From Eledone cirrhosa (taxonomy: Eukaryota), in assembly GCA_964016885.1 (NCBI GenBank), contig OZ024742.1:65968001-66032000 (forward strand): 64,000 nucleotides of DNA, read 5' to 3'. A program made the translations under genes and the position numbers. How positions within the stretch are numbered: position 1 is the first letter of the stretch; each line of letters begins with the position of its first letter. This document shows positions 11,101 to 64,000 of the stretch, piece after piece. The notes beneath the pieces were generated by a model. That model saw nothing but the letters and a program-made list of their open reading frames with translations. It had not been told where the DNA came from and ran no database searches.

Positions 11101-14100
11101 GTTTGTGGTTGTCCTTTTCCTTCTGTTTTGTTTCCATTTCCTGTCGAGTGACTTCTCGACACCCAAGACAGAGAAACTCACTGCAACAAATTGGTAAGCC
11201 ACAAAATAAACACACCAGATTGTTCAAGTCACGCACTTAACACAGCTACAAGTATATCATTTGCTTTATACATGTACACATTATCTCTTTAAAATCATAT
11301 TTACAACAGAAGTACATTCGATAATATAGGATTGCTCAATTATTTATTACTTACATAATTATGGAATATATTTCCAAGTTAAAAATACATAAATGATTCT
11401 CCTTCTCCCAGCGATATTGTTTTTTCTCAATTCGTGTACGTACCGTACCAGTTAAAACAATCTTTTGCACTTCTTGCATCGATTGTAAGCCAGGGATCAT
11501 TCTAAAATAATGTCCGGTTCCGTTTTTGATCATTCCTAGCGCATCTACAATCATTGGTATTGTGACCACCTTCAGATGCCACATTTTATCAATATCAATC
11601 TCCAAGTCATTATATTTTCTGAGCTTGTCATTATTTTGCCGAAATACTGTGATCACATGGGATACACATATTAATCAATAAACATGCTTTTGCAATAATA
11701 TCCAATATATTGATGGTTCTGTTTGTACGGGAAAGTCCCAAAGAATCTTTACATTTCCCCCCTCAGTTCAGTAGTTTTCATTTGATAATACCATCGTATT
11801 AAGCTGGTAGGTATTAACCACCGTTCTCATACCTTGATTTATACTTTACTGGTGCCAAAATGTTACAATCAGTGATTAGGCTGTGCACAGTTTCAATCGC
11901 ATCATTGCAGAATCGGCACATTGGACTTACTCCATTTCAGATCACACTGGCTTGATAGTTCCAAGTTACTAAATGTTGATCTTGGGCAGCTTATGAAGCC
12001 TTCGCTCCCTGCCCTAAGCTACGCATGAATTGATGGGTGTACTTCTGGTCGACATCATTTTGTTTGCTAAGGGTCACATATCAGCTATGCAGATGTTTCT
12101 GTTCTCACCTCGATGTTAATTGTTCATGCCCTTTTTTCTTTGCCATTGATTTTACTTGCTTTGCAATAATAGTTACCACACATCCCTCGGTCTGCCAAGC
12201 GTTGATATTATTCAAGGGATCAGCAACAAAATTTCTGTTCCCTTTCAAGACCGAATGAAGATTCTTACACCTCTAATGTTTTTCAATGAACTTCAGCATT
12301 CAGTCGTTTGTTTCTCCGAGATATTCGGCCAGTCCATTATTGGTGGTTTTGAAAGACAGTTCAAACTGGGCCAAGCCTCTGCTTCCTTGAGTTCTGAGAA
12401 GGTAAAGATGATCCTCATCTGAATCTGTATGGTGCATCTTACTATCAACTTAGGAAATTGTGTGTCAATTCTCTTAATTTCTTTTATAACTGTTTCACCA
12501 TCCAGTTCAACTAAATTGGAGTTTATCAACTTCCCTTTCTTGAAAGTAGCCTTGCCACACTTATCAAACCCAAACTATATCCCGACGTCATCACTGAATG
12601 CTTTTCCAGTATGTAAATGGCCTTCAAGCTAACCATTGTCTTGGACATATAGTTTTAAATCATTCATATAAAATAGATGGCTCATTTTCCTGTTGTCAAT
12701 TCTATACACATAACTTGTTCTGTTAAGTATGATTGTAAACGGTATCAGAGCTATGCAAAATATTAGAAGTGAAAGTGAGTCACCTTGGAAAATACAACAG
12801 TCGATGTTAATATTGTTTGAACTTAGTACTCCATTTGAATGATATAACTGGAGATTCGTGTCCCACAAGGACATATTATATTTCAGAAAATTAGAAAATA
12901 CAAGGGTAATTTTGAAGATGTCCAGCGATTTTAGAATCCACGAATGTGGTACACTGTCAAAAATCTTTTTTAATCAATCCATGCAGGGCTTAAATTTCTG
13001 TGCTTTTTAAGATAGTTCTGAAAGATTAAAATTCATCGGCATTCTTTTGTTCAATAGGGAAAAGATTTCTTCCATAAATGCATGTTTTCTCCATCAGATT
13101 TTATAAGTGGTGGATAAACAAGTTTGATAGCTTTTGTTTTATCTTCGGTTGCACGATACTTGGGTTGTAAGTGAGGAATACCTTCTGCTATCGAGTCATG
13201 TGTTTTTTCAGGATCTTTCATGATTTCATTGAACACCTGGACTAACTTTTCGTTTGCGCACATGAGCGATGAAAGCCAGAAATTGGACACCATATCTTTT
13301 CCAGAATATTTCCACTTGTAAGTTATTGTGAGTACCATACTTAGGTTTGCTATTGAGATATTTTCCCATGTTTGTTCTCATCACTTCAAATCCTTTCTTA
13401 CATTTCTTCCATTACTACAGTAGTTATCTTCTCCACTATTCCTCTTTAAAATGCCTTGACATTGGATATGAACATATTTTGCTTGTGAAAATTGTTTCTC
13501 CTCTCAAATCTTCGTTCTCGTCAAGCTTCTTTGTTTCAGCACTTTCATTGTTAATATTAACTCTTCTCTTGATGAACAGCCATATTTTCTCTTCAACCTT
13601 CTTCCTCTATTGTATCTTACATTATTTCCAGAGATTAGTTCATTTAACATTGATATTTCCCCTCTCATTAATTCAATATTATTTTCAGCGTAATTTCTCC
13701 ATTGTGGTTTTCTTCTTAAGTTTGTCTTTGTTTTTTCCGAGGCATATATCTTGTTTCAATTACACTAAAAAAAGCGTAAATAATTTCATTTAACTCAATA
13801 AGATCCGTTTCTAATTCTTTTGCGATTTCTTTTGTTACTAATTTTGATTTGTTTTTATTTTGATTTGTATTTGAGAGTTTTTGAAGTGGTTCTCTATCAT
13901 TCATACCTGTAAGTCTTACGACTGCTAGCTCAATCAAAATTTTCTGCTTCACTTCGATCATAGGCTCTATGTATTCTTAAATTTAGGTCATTTTCCACTG
14001 CCTGCCTGATCGCAATTAATTCCGTATCTGTGAGTCTATTATTTCTGAAGCTACCCCTCCTGGCATTTTACTAACCTATTTTGTCCAAATAAGGTCTGCT

Positions 14101-16000: not shown

Positions 16001-16125
16001 AGAAAGGGAAAAAATGATAACCATATATTTAAATATATATATAGCCCCCCCAAAAAACAAAAAAAACAACAAAATAAATTATACATATGCATACACACAC
16101 AGGCATGCGCACACACAAGCAACCA

Positions 16126-32283: not shown

Positions 32284-33309
32284 TCAACTGATGAGACAGC
32301 CTTGAACTGACCGATTTTTACCGATTAAATCTAATGTAAAACATGTTTGCTGTTATCATCTTCATCATCACTAACAAAGAACTTATGTTCCTTAATCATT
32401 GTATTTTCTGGCTTGTATTTTTAACTTAATTTTTTAGAAAAATCTTACTTGAAACGCTAACGAATGTGGCAATATATTTTTTACTTTTGATTACTCAGAT
32501 GAAAATTTCGATTTATTAAGAATTTTTAACGCACGTTATTCAGTATATCAAGATTTACTAGATTTAATTTGATCCACGACACTGGGTTAATATATCATTT
32601 CTCTAAGTAAATGTCTGCTCAATAATGTAAATCACTACAGGTTAAGCAATTGTTAGATCTCATAGCGATATCAGGATGAATCCACTTTATATATAGCTTG
32701 ACCGATCAGACAGTCACACGCATTAGGTGAAAAAGTGATATTGTTGTAGCGGATGTGTAGCCACACGTCAGCGCCAATGAAGTAGGATAACATCAAAAGG
32801 ATTTCAATCGTGAATCATGTTATTCTTTCTCCAAATAGTTTATCAACTTTTTTTTTTTTAAACAACAGTAAAAATGTTTATTCAAAAATAATGACAACTA
32901 TGGCGACAATAATAAAAAAAAGGGAAACAAAAGGAAAGAAAGAATAGGTAAGTATAGAGAAAGAAAGAAGAAAAAGAACGAGAAAGGGAGGGGATGGCAA
33001 GAGCTCTGGTGTCGCAGAAGAGAGGGGAGGGGTGAAGGGGAGAGGTAATTGGGTTTTGGTTCTAGGGCAAGAGGGCAGAAGAGCTGCGTCCCGCTGACAA
33101 GACGGTAAAAGCATTCCCGCGGACGATGACCAGTGACACACGCTGCAAAAACCACCCAACCACGCCTGAGGTCTCGACGACGGCCGGCATCCAAAGTCAC
33201 ATATTTTTATAAGATATGAATGAGATTTTGTTGCTATTTTTAGCACATTTATTGATTATGAAGACACAGCATTGTTACACCTGTTGTGGCATTATTCGAG
33301 TTGGTGGTA

Positions 33310-34478
33310 CAGGCGGTCCATCTGCTGTCAACACCCGCTACGTGGAGGGCTGGGCATGCCATGGCTAATGATGCGCAGAAACACGCTCAGGCTGCGACAT
33401 CTCCACCTCTTCCTCGACGGTGATCAGGTGTGGTCGCCGTTTGCTAGACGCGTCTTTACCCAGCTCGTCTCCTTGACGGAGCTGCATTCCTGGGTCAAGC
33501 AAAGACCGAGAGGGAACGCTTGGATACTGGAATGTCTTCAGGCGCTCACAGCCTTCGACCAATCGGGCAATGTGATCGGTAGAAACTCCACCTTGGCGTT
33601 CTATAGAGGATTAGTGGAGGGGAAGAGCGACGACGTACTTGGGGAAACTCTAGGTGTCGACGAAAATCAACTAGCCAATCTCTTCGGAAGAACGTTCGGG
33701 CCGGGGCCTATGGACAACTTCCAGGATCCCTGGCCTGGCAGTGCTACCGAGGACCTTTGTCAATTCGGGATAAACTCTACAGGCATGGAAGTGCCGTCAG
33801 CCGGCCATGTCCGAGATGCGCACAGGGCGACGAAACCATCCTGCATGCACTCGTCCAGTGTCCGAGAATTGCTGACTTGTGGGTTAATGTCGAATACCTG
33901 CTGTCACGTGTAGGACGGATCCAACTATCAGCTGAGTCCATCGTGAGGATTGCCCCACCCTCTTCCTTTAGCAGGGAAGGGCAGGCAGTTTTTATATGTC
34001 TAGTGGCCATGGCGAAAGAGATAGTATGGTGGACGCGTTTGAAAGGGCTGAAGACGAGCAGTTACCTCTTCAGTGATGCCCTGATTAAGTTTTTCAAATT
34101 TCATTTGAAAAGAAAAATTAGGGTAGAGAGGGAAGTGCTCTCTTCCCAGCATCTTGTTGAAAGATGGGTGAGAGAGGCAAGAATGGCCCGAGTGAATGGG
34201 CCTACTCTGAGTATGTGTCTGTAAATTAAAGGTGGAAAACTGGGAGAGGGCACTTGCCCTGGTGGTCAGGGTCACTGTGGCTTTTTTAATGTGCTTTCTC
34301 CACGAATGTCCCTCGGAAGTCTCCCCGCTATTGGGGAATTTTTCATTGTTTCTTTTTTTGTTACATCCTCTGCTTTTATTTTTTTTACACGCAAAAATGC
34401 CCATTTGTATTGTCCTGTATTGTCCTGTACTGTCCTTAATGTCTTACTTTGTGTAAACCCTTGTGGTTAATAAAGAAA
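33310..34478 (+). mobile_element. 5'-truncated L1/Tx1-like LINE with 21-bp TSD
   Basis: GGLGMPWL and RPCPRCAQGDETILHALVQCP (CCHC); 3' end CCTTGTGGTTAATAAAGAAA; TSD GCATTATTCGAGTTGGTGGTA at 33289 and 34479. Confidence 0.9.
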
Positions 34479-48160: not shown

Positions 48161-48179
48161 CATATATACACAGATGTGA

Positions 48180-48483
<304 letters not shown>

Positions 48484-50029: not shown

Positions 50030-50402
50030 TATCAAAGCAAAATGAATGTATGAATAAATACTATTGTCCAGAAGTGAACTAACTATTCCCAGATATTTCA
50101 GGAATGGACAGTTAATGAAGGAATCCTGAAAATAACAGCATAGTAGTTGTTGGCAAAAGCGTGTCAGATGCAATGAAATTACCGAATAGGTTTATAAGAT
50201 GTACGATATTTACCAGATGTTGAGTGGAGATTCTTTAGACTTCACTCTGTCAAATATGGTAGGAAGAAAGATCGGTTAATAAGGAGGTAAGTCAAGACAA
50301 AAGTTTGGAACAAGTTTAAAAAGTTTATTTATAGAAATAACTATGTCCGTTCCTAAAATTTTGTTTATCCAATTAGCTAACTACATATATGTATGTATGT
50401 AT

Positions 50403-51446
50403 GGTCGTCTGGTTTTATAATTTCACAAATTTTTGCCAATAGAGAGAGAGTCGGTTTCTAACATTGGAATTTACACAACATCAACTCGGTAGTATGCATG
50501 TATGCATAATCAGGGTGGAGTATCTGCAGATTTCTCATTAGTTCTGCATAAATATTCTCCTTTTCACAAATCTTTGATATTATATTGGCATCTACTGGGC
50601 AGCTAACTTCCACTACTGTGCATGCCTTCTTTTCCCTGTCCCATATCATAATATCTGGTCTGTTATGACTGCATTTTATTGGGGTTTTTACTGGATCATT
50701 CAACTAGTACTCTTTCCTTTTATGGATATGCATGTCTTCCACATTGCTGTAGCTTTTAATGTGTTTATTATCGGAGCTACCTTTTCTACGGGTTGCATTG
50801 TACAGTGTTTTGGCCACTACATAATGCCTCATAGGTTGATAGCACCGCGGTGACATCTTTGGACAGCTGCTTATGACATGGTTGACATTTTCGATGTTAA
50901 TTCTGCAGATTCTGCACTTGTTATCACATCTAGGTGTTTTGCCTGCATCCCTATTTCTTTTGTGAATCAGATATTTCGTGTTTATTTCTTGTTCTTGGAT
51001 TGCAAAAGCGTATCCTTCAAAGTGGGAGCCAATATAGTGGTTGTTGGTCCAAGATAGACACTTTTTTTAATCTATATTACTCTCACACTGGAGCTTCCTG
51101 ATAAGCATGCAGTTTTTCATCCATGGATTCACTGCGATACTGCTGAGTGACATCCCTGGGTGTGAGTTTTTGATTATCACACAGGGAATACCTCTCGATG
51201 AGTTCTTTCCCAACTCTAATGATCTCATCGGTTTCATGCAGATAAACTTGCTCGAGAGACGGCATCCTACGCTTCGAGGTTCGTAGATGTAGTCGGAGAG
51301 ATATGATGCGACATTCAAATGTTGTCTGGACTGATGTTAGGCCTCTGCCTCCCTGTTTACCTTTCAAATAAAGGCGGTCTATGTCACTGTTGATGTGGAA
51401 GTTTCCAGTGTTGTTTAGTATTTTTCGAGTTCTAATATCATGTATG
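50403..51446 (-). mobile_element. TATG-associated REL (R4/Dong-like) LINE fragment
   Basis: DIDRLYLKGKQGGRGL, FAIQEQEI, CRIC..HVISSCP, HNRPDIMIWD..VVEVSCP; internal deletion near 50500. Confidence 0.85.
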
Positions 51447-52078
51447 TTCTTCTGGTTATATAATTTCACAAAGTTTTACCAATAGAGAGAGAGTCGGTTT
51501 CTAACATAGATACAAGACTCTCTCATTGGAATTTACACAACACCAACTAGGTAGATATGTATGTATGTCTGCATGCATGCATGCATGTGTAGATATGGAT
51601 GTTATTGTATGTGTGGATGTGGATGTTTTGAGTTGTATGTGTGAATGTGTATATGGTTTGTGTCTGTACATGTGTATATGCAGTTATTAGATGCAACATT
51701 TTTGGAATGTTTTACATATTTTTACTGTTCCATTAATGTATTGTACTTGTAATTTCCTAACTAGTTGTGTTCTTTCTGTTACTGTGAAGCCTAGCTTCTC
51801 AAGATTTGTATTGAGGCAGTTACTAACATATACCAGTGCCCCAATAATCACAGGCATAAATCTGAAGGTGTAATCAGGGTGGAGTATCTGCAGATTTCTC
51901 ATCAGTTCTGCATAAATATTCTCCTTTTCACTAATCTTTGATATTATATTGGCATCTGCTGGGCAGCTAATTTCCACTACTGTGCATGTTTTCTTCTCCC
52001 TGTCCCATATCATAATATCTGGTCTGTTATGCCTGCATTTTATTGGGGTTTTTACTGGAACATTCCACCAGTACTCTT
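51447..52078 (-). mobile_element. TATG-associated REL LINE 3' fragment
   Basis: RPDIMIWDREKKTCTVVEISCPAD..FMPVIIGAL. Confidence 0.85.
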
Positions 52079-53019
52079 TGTATGTATGTATGTATGTATG
52101 TATGTATGTATGTATGTATGTATGTATGTATGTATGTATGTATGTATGTATGTATGTATGTATATAGGTAGATAGGTAGGTAGATAGGTATGTATGTAGG
52201 TATGTATGTATGCATGTATTTATGATTGTATGTATATATGTATATATGTATGCCTGTAAGCGTATTTATTTGAATATGCATGTATGATTATTTGTATTTA
52301 CACACGAATATTTGTGTTTCTGCATGGTCATGGTTTTTTCTATGTATCTATCGATACACTTTTATACCTACGCGTGTGCATTTGTAAATTCTGCAGGCGA
52401 AACATTTTGAAATGTTTTAGATATCTTTCCAGGTTCATTAATGAGTAATTATTAATGAATTATCTTTCCTTTTTTCTCTAACCACGAGTTGTCAAGAGTG
52501 GTCCTGAGACAATTACAAGTTGCCTCGCCAATAACCACAGTTTTTTGTATCTAAACAAATATTTAGTGTATATATTTCTTATTAAATCAGTATAGATTTT
52601 TTAACATTTACCTTATTCTAACAACTGATTTCTTCTGCTGAGCTTAGATTATTTTCTCTGCTACAAAAGTGTATGACTAATCCACTGAGTTACAGAAAAT
52701 ATGACAGGGGCATTCTACAAATATTCTTTGGTTCCATGAGTGACTATGATCTCCATTACACTGTAACGTCTTAAATATATATATTTCGGAACTAAATCGA
52801 CTGCGAATTACATTGTGTAGTGTTTTGGCCATATAACATACATCATACATAACTAATAGCATGAAGAGTTTTTCAGACAGCTGTTTATGATGTGTCTGAC
52901 ATTCAGTCATAAATCCATATATGTATGCATATATTTATGCATATACATATATATGCATATATGTATGCATATATATATGTGTGTATATGTGTATGTATGT
53001 AAGTGTGTATGTATGTATA

Positions 53020-53640
53020 ATGGTTTTATAATTTCACAAATTTTTGCCAATAGAGAGAGAGTCAGTTTCTAACATAGACACAAGACTCTCTCATTGGAAT
53101 TTACACAACACTAACTAGGTAGATATGTATGCATGTCTGCATCATGCATGTGTAGATACGGGTGTTATTGTATGTGTGGATGTGTATGTTCTGAGTTGTA
53201 TGTGTGAATGTGTATGTGCTTTGTATCTGTACATGTGTGTATGAAGTTATTAGATGCAAAATATTTGGAATGTTTTACATATTTTTACTGTTCCAGTAAA
53301 TGGATTGTACTTGTAATTTCCTAACTAGTTGTGTTCTTTCTGTTCCTGTGAAGCCTAGCTTCTCAAGATTTGTATTGAGGCAGTTACTAACATATCCCAG
53401 TGCCTCAATAATCACAGGCATAAATCTGAAGGTGTATTCAGAGTGGAGTATCTGCAGATTTCTCATCAGTTCTGCATAAATATTCTCCTTTTCACTAATC
53501 TTTGATATTATATTGGCATCTGCTGGGCAGCTAACGTCCACTACTGTACATGCTTTCTTTTCTCTGTCCCATATCACAATATCTGGTCTGTTATGCCTGC
53601 ATTTTATTGGGGTTTTTAAAGAACATTCCACCAGTAATCT
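53020..53640 (-). mobile_element. TATG-associated REL LINE 3' fragment
   Basis: Near-identical to 51447-52078. Confidence 0.85.
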
Positions 53641-53676
53641 TTCATATTATGAATATGTATTTATGTATGTATGTAT

Positions 53677-54150
53677 GTCAAAAGGGCAAAGGAGCTCTTA
53701 AGAGTCAATGGCCATCAAAAATCACCGGGAGAGATGACCACTTAGCCTTTGTCAAGCCTGAATTCTAGGAGAAGGAAAACTCTGATATAACGCCTGCAAC
53801 CCTGATGGTATCCAATGATGTTGACTTGTTCTTCATTTTGGTAAATATCATCTTGGTTAAGAGAGTGGGACTGGCTTTGTGCAGTGCCTTTGCTCACTAT
53901 AAAAGCTTCACGGCACAGGCATATGGAGGTCTTTCTGCACTTGTCGTCACATGGTACCATGGGCCCAGCACTATGTGTCAATAATTGTCACAAGTGTAGT
54001 GTTTGTACCAGAGTTTTCAAGTCGCTGGCTGGACTAAAAAGTCACACACGTTCAGCGCATCGGCAGGGGTTCTCCTACATGGATATAAAGTATTGACCGT
54101 ACTCGAAAACGAGTTGGCAGCGACCATGTATGTATGTATGTATGTATGCA
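53677..54150 (+). mobile_element. RTE-derived retroposon, copy 3
   Basis: Matches ~16850-17325; CSVCTRVFKSLAGLKSHTRSAH at 53995-54060. Confidence 0.75.
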
Positions 54151-54259
54151 CGTATCCTTCGAAAAACTTGAAAAGAGAGTGTGGGCGTATCATGGCATCA
54201 ATATCAAAACCAAGATTAATGTGTATAAGGCCTACAATCCCAGTACCCTTGTTGTACTG

Positions 54260-55178
54260 TCGTGTTGAACATTTGTTGTACTCTTCGGAAACGTGGACAG
54301 CAAATCGCAGGCACCGTACTTTACTTGAAAACTTTCATCAAAAGTGTTTAATACAAATCCTAAACATCAAATGGCAACAAAAAATACCTGACACACAAAT
54401 CTTTATAGATGCTGGTTGCACGATCATTGAATCTACCATCATATCCTCTCAAATGCGTTGGGTAGGCCATGTTGTAGAAAGTCTCCCAAAACAACGAAGA
54501 AAGACTCCCAAAACCAACTATTTTACAACCAATTACACACTGGGAAACGCCCTCAGCACAAACCAAGAAAAAAGATATACGGATTGCATAAAAAACAACC
54601 TTAAAGATCTACAGTTTGAAGTTAAAAACTGGGAAGTGCTTGCTTTAAAGAGGGGTAAATGGAGAAGACATATGAAGGAAGGCTGCAGAATGTTTGAAGA
54701 GAGACGTTTTGACCATGAAAAACTTAAACGTCAGCTTCGAAAAGGCCACAGTATGAACCTCCATAAGAACACAGGGAGCTGGATTTGTGAGGTGTATGGT
54801 CGTTTACTGCTCTCTAAATCTGGCTACATCACTCCTTTAAAATCACATAAAAAGCCAACTATATGCAGCTCTCTCCACACAATGCTAGATAAGACAACAT
54901 GTATGGTGCGCAAGAAGTGAAAATCAATCTCTGGTCTTAAAAGGCATATGAGGATACCTAAGGATGACATCCTACAAACTGACCCAATAAATCGAACAGA
55001 GGGCACATCTTTTGTCTGTCAAATATGTTGTAGACCATGCACATCTAACGCTGGACTTTGAAACAACATAAGGGGCCATGGACGGATGTTTGGAGTTGGT
55101 GATTGTTGAAGGGGGCGCACAGGGACACGGCAATCGTCTGCAAAGATGAAGCAATTAAAATGTACGTATGTATGTATC
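54260..55178 (+). mobile_element. RTE-clade LINE 3' fragment with C-terminal C2H2 fingers
   Basis: LLYSSETWT..FHQKCLIQILNIKWQQKIPD..MRWVGHV..KRYTDCIKNNLK; three decayed C2H2-like repeats; TATG tail. Confidence 0.85.
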
Positions 55179-56684: not shown

Positions 56685-56723
<39 letters not shown>

Positions 56724-56727
<4 letters not shown>

Positions 56728-56938
56728 AACCACAGACCCTCCATCTCAACTCACCTTTTGAAAAGCAGAAGAACTGCGAAACCGGTAAAGGAACCAAATA
56801 AATATATATATTTAAAAAAAAAAAAAAAAAAAAAAAAAATAAGACTTCAGTTGCATTTTCGATTTCATCCCTTTTTCTTTATACTTCCACTCGTGTAGGA
56901 CACCTCGGTTATTTTTCATTTTGTAAAAAAAACCTCAC

Positions 56939-56944
<6 letters not shown>
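56724..56944 (+). mobile_element. ~210-bp hammerhead mini-element, copy 2
   Basis: Same boundaries as 48180-48383; flanked by (TA)n. Confidence 0.8.
56754..56791 (+). ncRNA. 38-nt minimal type-I hammerhead, U3-A8 compensatory core
   Basis: CCUU-UUGAAAA-GCAG aagaa CUGC-GAAA-CCG-GUA-AAGG. Helices I and II perfect, palindromic ACCGGU, AATAAA follows; predicted cleavage after 56787. Confidence 0.85.
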
Positions 56945-56973
<29 letters not shown>

Positions 56974-59149: not shown

Positions 59150-60026
59150 TTTAATTTCTTTCATTATTGTTTCCGTGATATATGCCGAGTGTCTTCCTGA
59201 TACCTAGGGCAAATAAATTCACAGTGTACATTGATAAGCCAGTTAATCCAGCATATTGATTATAATTAAAAAAAAACAGTATACATATATACACATGTGC
59301 ATATGCATATGTAAATACAAGGAGGGATATCAATCTTACAGAGATAGTGCTCTTCTCAATACGTGTGCAGTACCAGTCAAAACAATTTTGTGCACCTCGT
59401 GCAGAGAGGGTAAACCAGGAATCATTCGCAAATATTGTTCTGTTCCTTTCTTGATCATTCCCAGCCCTCCCACAATCACTGGTATTGTAACGGCCTTGAG
59501 GTGCCACATTTTCTCAATTTAAATAAGCAGATCTTTATATTTTCGTAGGTTGTCAAATTCTTTTGCCGCGATATTGTGATCACATGGGATGATCATATCT
59601 ATCAATAAACAGACCATGTTATGTTGATCTTTTATAATGATGTCAGATCTATTTGCTTTTATGGTCCTGTCAGCATGTACAGGAAAGTCCCAGAGAATTG
59701 TTACTTTTTCTCCTTCAGTCACAGGCTCAGGGTGATGATTGTACCACTTGACTTCAGCTTTGATTTTGTAATGCCGACATATTACCCATTGTAGATATTG
59801 GCCAACTCTGTCATGTCTATATTTGTATTCTACTGGTGCTAAAACTTTACATCCAGAGACTAAGTGATCCACTGTTTCAACCTCAGCATTGCAGAATCGG
59901 CACTTTGGGTTTATTATTCCGTTTTTCCTCACATTGGCCTGGTAATTACGAGTCAATAAGTTTAGATCTTGGGCAGCTAAGATGAAGCCTTCACTCTCCG
60001 CCTTTAGCCCTGAACTACGTAGCCAT
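59150..60026 (-). mobile_element. R4/Dong-like LINE 3' fragment in (TAA)n
   Basis: KCRFCNAEVETVDHLVSGC..RHD..ILWDFPVHADRTIKANRSDIII..CLLIDMIIPCD. Confidence 0.9.
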
Positions 60027-60047
60027 ATTATTATTATTATTATTATT

Positions 60048-60148
60048 AATCCCGCCGAGGTTAACTTTGCCTTTTATCCTTACGAGGTCGATAAAATAAA
60101 GTACCAGTAATGCACTGGAATAATTCTCGGCATTGTGCCAAAAGTAGA

Positions 60149-60150
<2 letters not shown>
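60048..60150 (+). mobile_element. 5'-truncated tRNA-derived SINE with (TAA)n tail
   Basis: AATCCCGCCGAGG..GTCGATAAAATAAAGTACCAG. Confidence 0.85.
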
Positions 60151-60199
<49 letters not shown>

Positions 60200-60200
<1 letters not shown>

Positions 60201-60870
60201 GGAGGCTAGCCCACTGTGCAGGATCTGTGGAGAGAGAGAGGAGACTGTGGCTCACATTGTGTCCGAGTGTAAACACCTAGCCCAGACCCACTATAAGGGC
60301 TGGAGACACGATGTGATGGGCAGGGTGATCCACTGGCACCTGTGCAAAGTAAACAATCTACCACATTCTGAGAAATGGTATGAGCATAGGCCAGAGGCGG
60401 TGATGGAGAACAGTCAGGTGAAGGTGCTGTGGGATTTTAGGATACAGACGGACAAAAAACTGGAACACAATAGACCTGACCTGGTGGTTGTGGACAAAGA
60501 AAAAAGATCGTGCCTGATTGTGGATGTGGCCTGCCCGTTCGACACGAGAGTGCAAGAGAAGGAGAGGGAGAAAATTAACCGATACCAGGACCTAAAGTGG
60601 GAGGTGAAAAGGATTTGGAACTTCCATGAAGTCAAAGTGATCCCGATTGTCATAGGCGCACTGGGGACTATCTCCAAAGGTTTCCAGGGATGGTTAAAGA
60701 AAATCGGCCCCTTCACGCTTTTTGGAACGCTTCAAAAGGCATGCTTGCTTGGAACAGCAAGAACCCTCCGATACGTCCTGAATACCTGAGGCTGCAGGTA
60801 GTGGCTTGATATTCAATCCAACGGACTTTCCAGTTAACCAACATCAATGACTGAGATTCAAGGAATAACA
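60200..60870 (+). mobile_element. R4/Dong-like LINE 3' fragment (second family) in (TAA)n
   Basis: ETVAHIVSEC..RHD..LWDFRIQTDKKLEHNRPDLVVVD..DVACPFD..KYQDLK-like..PIVIGALG; open REL frame. Confidence 0.9.
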
Positions 60871-61852: not shown

Positions 61853-64000
61853 GATTTCTTTATTGGCCACAAGGGCTGACATCAAGGAAAACATTACAGA
61901 CGGCACAGGACGGTATGATGTGCGTTTTGTGCGTGTAAATATTTTTATTATTTATATAAGAAAAGAAAGAAAGAAAGACATAGAAACATATATATATATA
62001 AACAATAAAAATGAAAATTGAAACAATGAAACATTCCCCAATTTTTCCATCTCTCAAACTACAGACGTATATTCAGAGCAGACCCGTTCACGCGGACTAT
62101 TCTCGCTACATTCACTCACCTTTCATCAAACTTGCTAGAAGGCAGCACTTGCCTCTCCACCCTGATTTTCCTCTTCAAGTGAAACTTGAAAAAGTTAATT
62201 AGGGATTCGCCGAAGAGGAAAGTGTCTGTCTTTAACCCTTTCAACCTTGTACACCACACAATCTTTTTCGCCATGGCTACCAGGCAGATGAAAACCGTCT
62301 GCCTTTCCTCGTCGTAGGAAGACGGCGAGCGCATCTGCACAATGGACTCAGTCGATAACCGGATCAGCTCTACACGCGACAGCAATTGTTCGACATAGCT
62401 CCACAAGTCAGCAATGCTCGGGCACTGAACGAGTGCATGCACGACGGTTTAGTCGCTCTGCGAGCATCTCGGACAGCGTCTGCTGACGGCACTTCCATGC
62501 ATGTAGAGCTTATCTCGAACCGGCAGCGCTCCCCGGTAGCACTGCCAGGCTAGGGATTTTGGAAGAGATCAATAGGCCCTGGGCTGAAAGTTCTCCGGAA
62601 GAGAGCAAACAGCTGATCTTCTTTGACGCCCAGGATATTTCCGAGAACGTTGTCGCTCTTCGCCTCCACTAGTCCTCTATAGAACGTCGAGGTGGATATT
62701 CCACCGATACTGGTGCCCAGCTGGCAGAGGGCAATGAGCGCCTGGAGATATTCCAGTTTCCAAGCCTTGGTATTTTTTCTGACCCAGGACTGCAGCTCCG
62801 TTAAGGAGACGAGCTGTGGGGAAACGTGCCTGGCGAACGGCGACCACACCTGTTCACCGTCAAGGAAGTACCAGAGATGTCGCAGCCTCAGCCCATGTTT
62901 GCGCATCACAGCCATGGCATGCGCAGTCCTCTACGCAACGGGTGTTGACAGCAGATGGATCGTCTGACCATGGCAGCGCGTCCCTTCCACAAAAATCGGA
63001 AGAGGAGGCGCTCCATATTGGTGAGAGTTGGGCTGGGGCAAGGGACGACGGTGAGGCGGTAGCAGATGACGGATGTGATGTAAGCATTCGCCACCTCCCC
63101 CCGGCCTTTCAGGGACATTTTCCTCTCGGCCCATTTCTGGGTGAGGGAGGCCACCTTGCTCGTCACCTCGTTCCAGCTTTTTTCCATCTGGAGGTCCGGT
63201 CCGAACTAGACCCCGAGCAATTTAAACGGTCTGTCCGTCCAACGCCCCACAACGTTGTCGAACGGCATGCACTTGCCCCTCCAGGTGCCGAGCTGCAGCC
63301 CACCGACTTTTCCTGGTTTATCTTTGCTCCTATCACCGCTTCGTATTCCTTGAGAGCGGTGCCGAGCATCTTGACGTGCCTGGTGCTCGACACTACCACG
63401 GTGACGTCGTCGGCATAAGCCGACTCGGATTTCCCGCATCCTAGTTTACGTGGGACGCCTCTCATCGCCCCCAGTTTGTGCTGTAACTGCTCGAGAGCCA
63501 ATACGTACAAAAGGGACGAAAGCGGACAACCTTGGCTGACTGAGCGCATGATGCTGAACGGCTGCGACAGGTGACCGTTCACCCTCACAACTGAGCAGAT
63601 ATCGCTGTACATCGCAGCGATCCAACCCTGAAAACGGGCCCGAAACCGGCTGCCTCGAGGACCGCCGCCAGGTCCCGATAGTTGACCCTATCGAATGCTT
63701 TGGATTGATCCAAGTTGATGAGGGCCCCACCGGTGCCAGGTTCCTTAACCACCCTCTCTATGATGTATCGCATGAGGTGAAGGTTGTCGTGTATGGATCT
63801 TTCCGGAATGGTGCATGTCTGCGCCTCTCCCACCAGACCCTTGGCGACAAGCGCCAACCTCGTTGCTAACACATTGGCCAACATCTTGAACTTTGCGTTT
63901 AGCAGGGTTATGGGCCTGAAATTATCGATAACATCTCCCTTGTTCGGGGCTTTTCTCAGCAGCGCCACCGCTCCCCGGCTCACAAAACTGGGAATGCTCC
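61853..64000 (-). mobile_element. L1/Tx1-like LINE ORF2 (RT to C-terminus), frameshifted, runs off the window
   Basis: NFRPITLLN, LDQSKAFDRV, QGCPLSSLLY, AYADDV, CPRC..HALVQCP; 3' end CCCTTGTGGCCAATAAAGAAA; same family as 33310-34478. Confidence 0.95.

Follow-up and report, generated by a model that had tools for sequence, protein, structure and literature searches.

The window, a 64-kb stretch of Eledone cirrhosa DNA, contains two copies of the same short element end, both on the plus strand. Copy A (56724..56951) was recognised by insertion mapping as a 5′-truncated end of a Penelope-like element (PLE), which comprises the last part of a pLTR and a tail. It spans from position −64 to an endpoint at +147, counted from the predicted cut site of the hammerhead motif as position 0, and its final 7 nt blend into a (TA)n run. 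Copy B (48171..48389) represents the same element end and extends from a CAGAT sequence at −73 to +147. Its true start at 48171 (CAGATGTGA) is located 9 nt earlier than position 48180, at which the first-pass annotation had placed it, while the accompanying statement that two copies with nearly the same ends are present in the window was borne out. The alignment of copy A (56724-56944) with copy B (48180-48382) in the same orientation gave an identity of 87% over 221 columns including gaps (E 8e-74), and copy B differs from copy A by other subfamily alleles and by small deletions. The earlier caveat that the segment might be just a local segmental duplication was followed up by comparing the 8 kb surrounding either copy after simple repeats had been masked. 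Homology in register was limited to the 221 nt, and a segmental duplication was therefore ruled out.

Both copies are flanked on either side by (TA)n/(CA)n runs, including the (TA)n target run immediately 5′ of copy A (56690..56723, no strand assigned), and no target-site duplication was readable at copies A and B. Downstream of the hammerhead motif, copy A continues on the plus strand with a leader segment that contains an expanded A-run (56792..56883) and ends at +79, the endpoint of tail-less copies, followed by an optional tail of 68 nt between the fixed 3′ endpoints +79 and +147 (56884..56951), which adjoins the ORF1 start codon in intact elements. The window copies are solo, and no coding part of the parent PLE was found within the 64-kb window. 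Additionally, decayed fragments of other retroelements (zf-RVT, RVT_1) were observed in the window at 33224-34224, 50385-54920, 59519-60789 and 62060-63687; the regions 33515-34223 and 62060-62768 form an inverted match of 709 nt, and pieces of the region 50385-53660 are repeated locally.

The hammerhead motif and its predicted fold

A strict type I hammerhead descriptor matched a single site in the 64-kb window, a minimal type I hammerhead of 38 nt in copy A (56754..56791, plus strand). In this motif helix I is formed by CCUU/AAGG (56754-56757/56788-56791), the core from U3 to A9 reads UUGAAAA (56758-56764, U3 at 56758 and A8 at 56763), and helix II is formed by GCAG/CUGC (56765-56768/56774-56777) with a loop of 5 nt. 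GAAA is located at 56778-56781, helix III is the palindrome ACCGGU (56781-56786), and with A17 at 56787 the cut is predicted between 56787 and 56788. The motif possesses the type I core, with a Watson-Crick pair between positions 3 and 8 (U3-A8), the pair G10.1-C11.1 and an NUH cut site (GUA). The first-pass annotation had described a 38-nt U3-A8 hammerhead with perfect helices at 56754, the palindrome ACCGGU as helix III and the same cut site, and was confirmed by the descriptor. It had also expected standard searches to miss the motif, and Rfam was indeed silent: no hammerhead was among the matches listed for the 64-kb window (150 of 238, almost all of them microRNA models on microsatellites), and a scan of the 221 nt alone gave no hammerhead match. 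Copy A also departs from the min-HHR consensus (Cervera and de la Pena 2014), since its helix II has 4 bp and no bulge is present.

The corresponding motif of copy B (48211..48245, plus strand, U3 at 48214) has a helix I of 3 bp and lacks one G of the palindrome ACCGGU, and by this deletion it is predicted to be unable to form the 6-bp dimer helix. The 3-bp helix I is a common subfamily allele, which was present in 44 of 78 sampled copies and also in contigs of other organisms, whereas the allele with the fourth pair was found in all 28 motifs beside intact ORFs. From the sequences, a stronger helix I appears to have evolved in the youngest subfamily. The fourth pair of helix II is absent in some copies.

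Folding of two copies into a double hammerhead via the 6-bp palindrome gave −18.9 kcal/mol versus −12.8 kcal/mol for two monomers. Helix I had a probability of 0.7 in the 38-mer and of 0.04-0.06 in its natural context, helix II had a probability of 0.83-0.88, and helix III formed only between two copies. The monomer fold showed no excess stability compared to shuffled sequences (z −0.94). By modelling, the hammerhead of copy A is predicted to be weak in cutting and to act as a dimer.

The parent element and conservation of the 3-8 pair

In the genome of 3.0 Gb, the hammerhead core, searched as a 25-nt pattern, matched exactly at 12,652 sites, and a second 25-nt pattern, located downstream of the hammerhead, at 16,100, while the reversed controls gave 0 matches in both cases; the description as a two-copy element did therefore not hold. 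Inspection of 30 loci revealed fixed 3′ ends and a variable 5′ extent, and at one of these loci the copy extended 1.2 kb upstream and reached an endonuclease-like frame. A search with this frame resulted in 150 scored matches, 16 of which were inside an open frame of 775 aa, and the 16 regions around ORF-bearing copies were retrieved (L061-L076). Hammerhead-bearing direct repeats on either side of the ORFs were present in four of the 16 regions (L064, L065, L067 and L070), and all 28 motifs matched in the 16 regions were U3-A8 motifs with the 4-bp allele of helix I.

In L067 the element is organised as a pLTR with hammerhead, ORF1 (409-codon frame), an overlapping ORF2 (775-codon frame), a 3′-UTR of about 1 kb and a pLTR with hammerhead. 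ORF2 contains a GIY-YIG domain at residues 682-772 (27.6 bits, above the Pfam cutoff of 22.6) and an RVT_1 match at residues 296-441 (E 4.9e-6), which with 26.8 bits is under the Pfam cutoff of 29.6. A C-X4-CxxC linker is located at residues 645-653, and the endonuclease carries a CxxC between the equivalents of GIY and YIG and two His residues downstream (CCHH). Among 6,883 candidates, 744 relatives were found at E≤1e-20. A CX2-5CxxC linker between reverse transcriptase (RT) and endonuclease together with CCHH in the endonuclease is given as the criterion for the Neptune/Nematis group (PMC8557442). By its linker the parent would be of the Neptune/Nematis type.

Copy A has zero substitutions compared to the upstream pLTR of L067 outside the A-run, which is 17 nt longer in copy A. 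Because copy A matches a pLTR beside intact ORFs, the supposed mini-element is, judged from sequence, the end of an autonomous PLE with RT and GIY-YIG endonuclease, and copies A and B correspond to its terminal pLTR/5′ leader. What had been described as a very small non-coding mobile unit is mobile, but it is no stand-alone non-coding unit, as it forms the end of a protein-coding PLE and its main alleles are common to short and long copies.

Some further features of the parent and its relatives were observed. The 400-aa ORF1 at L067:1759-2958 is rich in N, Q and R in its C-terminal third and gave no Pfam match, and ORF1 relatives of 26-43% identity lie upstream of ORF2 in eight other loci. A slippery heptamer UUUUUUA is located at the ORF1/ORF2 overlap (L067:2892-2898) and occurs in the same frame offset in eight of 11 related elements examined (L067, L219, L130, L131, L135, L136, L137 and L138), with UUUUUUG seen by eye in two more. 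A −1 ribosomal frameshift fusing ORF1 to the RT-endonuclease is predicted from the heptamer, which in L067 is followed by a 5-bp stem of not unusual stability. A frameshift-separated ORF1 is mentioned, with the clade not given, in the legend of Fig. 1 of PMC8557442. Two more hammerhead families, whose cores have the canonical C3-G8 pair, are present in the same genome (L009, L020, L076 and L091). Penelope-like ORFs inside bacterial genome bins (L210-L216) are most likely mis-binned DNA of animal hosts.

Within the family the pair U3-A8 is fixed. Among the 12,652 copies, 25 have G8, none has C3-G8, and 55 have C3, all of them together with A8, a count inflated by a tandem segmental array of seven C3-A8 copies located about 9.6 kb apart (G000:C1:348862169-348949710, L083-L086). 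The rare copies with C3 or G8 look like products of decay after insertion. A search of the same genome for C3-G8 relatives with an ACCGGU helix gave three matches versus 144 in the reversed control, so that none was shown. Due to the fact that C3-G8 does not occur within the family, copies A and B alone say nothing about selection.

The comparison across families is more informative. A sister family (L219, L229), whose RT is about 50-56% identical, has the same core and palindrome, and its motif is identical at 27 of 30 nt versus 22 of 44 nt just upstream. Its stems differ by compensated changes, G-C to U-A at pair 4 of helix II and C-G to U-A at pair 3 of helix I. Moreover, 87 loci with related RTs from other sequence collections were scanned with positions 3 and 8 left free. 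All 19 distinct motifs obtained, whose assignment to RTs is based on proximity and some of which are close kin, have a Watson-Crick 3-8 pair (15 C-G, 2 U-A, 1 A-U and 1 G-C), while ten shuffles yielded one match, which was unpaired. On a quick tree of 29 RT pieces a minimum of three changes is needed for U-A, and C3-G8 together with a palindromic helix III is found in the closest relatives that bear a hammerhead (L134, L137). Cores with A3-U8, G3-C8 and independent U3-A8 were seen beside related RTs in metagenome contigs (L175:1969, L180:117, L145:2216, and L179:8 and 2650). Furthermore, contigs of six other organisms hold parts of the same PLE end with a core without listed change, and four of them stop at +147.

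From these comparisons, selection on the fold, i.e. on the 3-8 pair and the stems, is visible across families. The first-pass annotation had taken the replacement of CUGAAGA by UUGAAAA as a double change that reflects selection on ribozyme function; this reading is supported across families by the 19 paired motifs and the compensated stems, but not within the family, in which a C3-G8 state is missing. Its statement that U3-A8 is a tolerated natural variant agrees with the literature, in which the pair is described as natural and active in vitro (PMC3088659) and as a variant of Penelope hammerheads with about 1,300 hits in Schistosoma (PMC4209133).

Ends of the insertions

For the mapping of insertion boundaries, which the first-pass annotation had proposed as a check, 100 consecutive copies were taken from the first 27 Mb of contig C1, and an exact match to the 25-nt downstream pattern was required. 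The copies were picked by a pattern outside the hammerhead, and the sample is therefore unbiased with respect to the hammerhead. The 3′ end was at +147 in 54 copies and at +79 in 33, so that 87 of the 100 stop at one of these two points, and the remaining 13 ended mostly near them; nearly all 3′ ends merge into (TA)n. The sample contained 23 head-to-head pairs, three of which, with arms 2.7-4.4 kb apart, could have arisen by separate insertions, and 21 of the pairs consist of one tailed and one tail-less arm (18 exact, three by inspection).

At the 5′ side, 52 of the 100 copies end between −76 and −61. With 44 ends within 7 nt (−73..−67) versus 11 in the adjoining 219 nt upstream (−299..−81), a hot spot is apparent, whose exact base is blurred by fold-back junctions. 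The other 5′ ends were located at least 300 nt upstream (15 copies), between −59 and −11 (5 copies) or at −10 or later (17 copies). Copy B starts within the hot spot at −73 and copy A at −64. The sequence at the hot spot is CAGAT, which we take to resemble an initiator. In the sister family, 13 of 30 loci, a few of which belong to other families, start at the homologous CAGAT between −75 and −66. In agreement with the shared ends seen by the first-pass annotation, the copies have two fixed 3′ points and a 5′ hot spot in common. The published literature searched contained no description of a fixed hot spot at the 5′ side, which is weak evidence of absence, and with this reserve both the hot spot common to two families and its reading as leader run-off are seemingly unreported.

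If cut RNA were the template, copies would begin at position 0. End patterns at −2..0 had 213 matches, and 19 of 30 matches checked were true ends, corresponding to about 135, whereas control patterns 20 nt upstream had 84 matches with 18 of 30 being true, corresponding to about 50, each out of more than 16,000 copies; since the control pattern accepts fewer flanks, the excess at the cut site is at most two- to three-fold and concerns about 1% of the copies. This low share agrees with the Anolis element, for which uncut RNA is described as the main substrate and cleavage as protein-assisted (PMC11167929), and with the low dimer activity described for such motifs (PMC4209133).

Two sequence features around the hammerhead were noted additionally. 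A donor-like motif GUGAG is located at −68 (48175-48180 region of the window, copy B), and a long pyrimidine tract ending with UAG is located near +97 (56894-56899 region, copy A). The two could bound an intron across the hammerhead; no matching joint was found in contigs of other organisms, and the sister family is without the donor.

Interpretation and relation to known systems

The short copies are insertions of the PLE end and are probably run-off cDNAs of a 5′ leader carrying the U3-A8 hammerhead. Transcription would start about 73 nt before the cut site, at the CAGAT that resembles an initiator, the element protein would nick (TA)n and prime cDNA synthesis inside the RNA at +79 or +147, and due to the leader 5′ end being only about 150-220 nt away, the cDNA would run off and yield such stubs. 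Priming in the downstream pLTR would instead result in longer, variably truncated copies. We infer the transcription start at CAGAT from DNA ends and the initiator-like motif only. For Drosophila Penelope, a promoter that lies inside the pLTR and contains an initiator has been documented (PMC2377424). That the encoded protein carries out target-primed reverse transcription is suggested by the ends of the insertions and by the Anolis element, whose protein primes cDNA inside its RNA in vitro; the internal RT starts define the tail there, and hammerhead cleavage is protein-assisted and unneeded for insertion in vitro (PMC11167929). With a hammerhead kept by selection in the parents and most templates uncut, cleavage would be slow and gated by dimerisation or by protein, and a single stub such as copy A would be a passenger.

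The main rival to leader run-off is that stubs are ordinary 5′-truncated copies whose synthesis was primed on full-length RNA at the downstream pLTR, with the accumulation of ends at −73 reflecting a stall of the RT or a joining preference. Extensive 5′ truncation is usual in these elements (PMC8557442), and ATGTG at the hot spot provides microhomology with (TA)n/(TG)n flanks and with fold-back junctions. This explanation is nevertheless judged unlikely, as it has to account for the sharp concentration of 5′ ends within 7 nt and for the recurrence of the same offset and of CAGAT in a sister family whose neighbouring sequence is only half identical. The stubs might also be a self-propagating, SINE-like non-autonomous family with its own internal promoter that is copied by the protein of the parent, which is closest to the view of the first-pass annotation. 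Their discrete length and very high share (52 of 100 copies) would fit such a family, as would the fact that a stub would begin at the inferred transcription start and holds both RT start points; non-autonomous PLE derivatives have been reported (PMC8557442; bioRxiv 10.64898/2026.07.22.740005). Three alleles were found in short copies only, in 9 of 52, 8 of 52 and 8 of 47 versus none of 22 long copies (p 0.05 for the first and 0.10 for the second). Each of the three is, however, also carried by L117, an older copy linked to an ORF2 with 75% identity to the young one. Short and long copies carry the main subfamily alleles at comparable frequencies (32 of 52 versus 10 of 22 at −34, p 0.30), and copy A, being identical to intact young elements outside the A-run, needs no lineage of its own. 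An independent stub lineage is not needed, and we regard it as distinctly improbable.

Two further explanations concern the ribozyme itself. The U3-A8 motif could be a decayed, non-functional hammerhead that drifts towards A/U-rich sequence, and the AT-rich context, the weak helix I, the missing excess of fold energy and the few ends at the cut site would be in line with decay. Opposed to this are the core and palindrome, unchanged between families of about 50% protein identity with stems compensated, the 3-8 pair kept in all 19 related motifs, and the in vitro activity of U3-A8 (PMC3088659), so that little credence is given to decay. The idea of a retrozyme, in which a unit is cut out by hammerheads, circularised and re-inserted, fits the size within 170-400 nt, the type I hammerhead and the palindromic helix III (PMC7229834). 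It was rejected as an identity of the unit, whose ends do not fit the hammerhead cut site: the window copies are solo, 5′ ends lie mostly 61-76 nt upstream of the cut site, and true ends at −2..0 numbered only about 135 versus about 50 at the control position. A retrozyme origin is accordingly considered hardly credible.

A more far-reaching version of the run-off reading is put forward tentatively, with slightly more doubt than belief. Half of the insertions would be strong-stop-like leader cDNAs of fixed length extending from +79 or +147 to CAGAT at −73, and the hammerhead, though conserved across families, would be passed uncut in nearly all templates. It would serve as a switch, gated by dimerisation or by protein, for removing or recycling RNAs and not for making the template, and stubs may re-amplify as SINE-like passengers. 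If run-off from CAGAT is true, thousands of stubs would constitute an in vivo map of promoter and RT start sites for a Neptune-type element. The value of the system lies in a young, intact and very high-copy parent with thousands of near-identical stubs, from which the transcription start, both RT start points and the fraction of templates that are cut can be predicted exactly, and it bears on the open question of what hammerheads do for Penelope-like elements.

The family is new, whereas the kind of element and the ribozyme variant that it carries are known, and since the U3-A8 variant is published, the finding as first posed is ordinary. Lunse et al. 2017 reportedly dealt with dimeric PLE hammerheads, and the variants described there may already include the U3-A8 motif or the family presented here. 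The supplements of PMC4209133 and PMC8557442 may likewise already list the motif or the family.

The motif resembles the metazoan PLE hammerheads of PMC4209133, including the U3-A8 hammerhead of Schistosoma mansoni Cercyon, in being a type I motif in a pLTR with palindromic helix III and a predicted dimer, in occurring in thousands of solo and inverted copies, and in the U3-A8 covariation known from the Schistosoma hits. It differs from the min-HHRs described there, which have a helix II of 6-8 bp and a bulged base between 9 and 10.1, by its 4-bp helix II without bulge, and is closer to the variants with palindromic helix III of the same study. Unlike in that description, U3-A8 is here fixed in two whole families, and the motif is highly uniform across copies. 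With metazoan non-LTR retrozymes the stubs share the short length, the non-coding nature, the type I hammerhead and the kinship to PLE pLTRs; retrozymes are tandem units processed at the hammerhead, whereas the stubs are solo or head-to-head with ends off the cut site (PMC7229834; bioRxiv 10.64898/2026.07.22.740005).

The parent corresponds to Neptune/Nematis PLEs in its RT, C-X4-CxxC linker and C-terminal GIY-YIG with CCHH as well as in its partial tandems, inverted 5′-truncated copies, one-sided tail and microsatellite target (PMC8557442; PMC3846280). In contrast to the elements of PMC8557442 with tails of 30-40 nt, its tail has 68 nt, and half of the sampled copies are discrete stubs with a fixed 5′ end. 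The Anolis Poseidon element PAc (Frangieh et al. 2024, PMC11167929) likewise has two internal RT starts that bracket the tail, an AT-rich target and a hammerhead upstream of the RT start, with uncut RNA being apparently the main template. However, PAc has C3-G8 and a single ORF, within which reverse transcription begins at a site that lacks homology to the target, whereas the Eledone element has U3-A8 and two ORFs, and both of its start points lie in the non-coding leader, are AUA-rich and merge with (TA)n.
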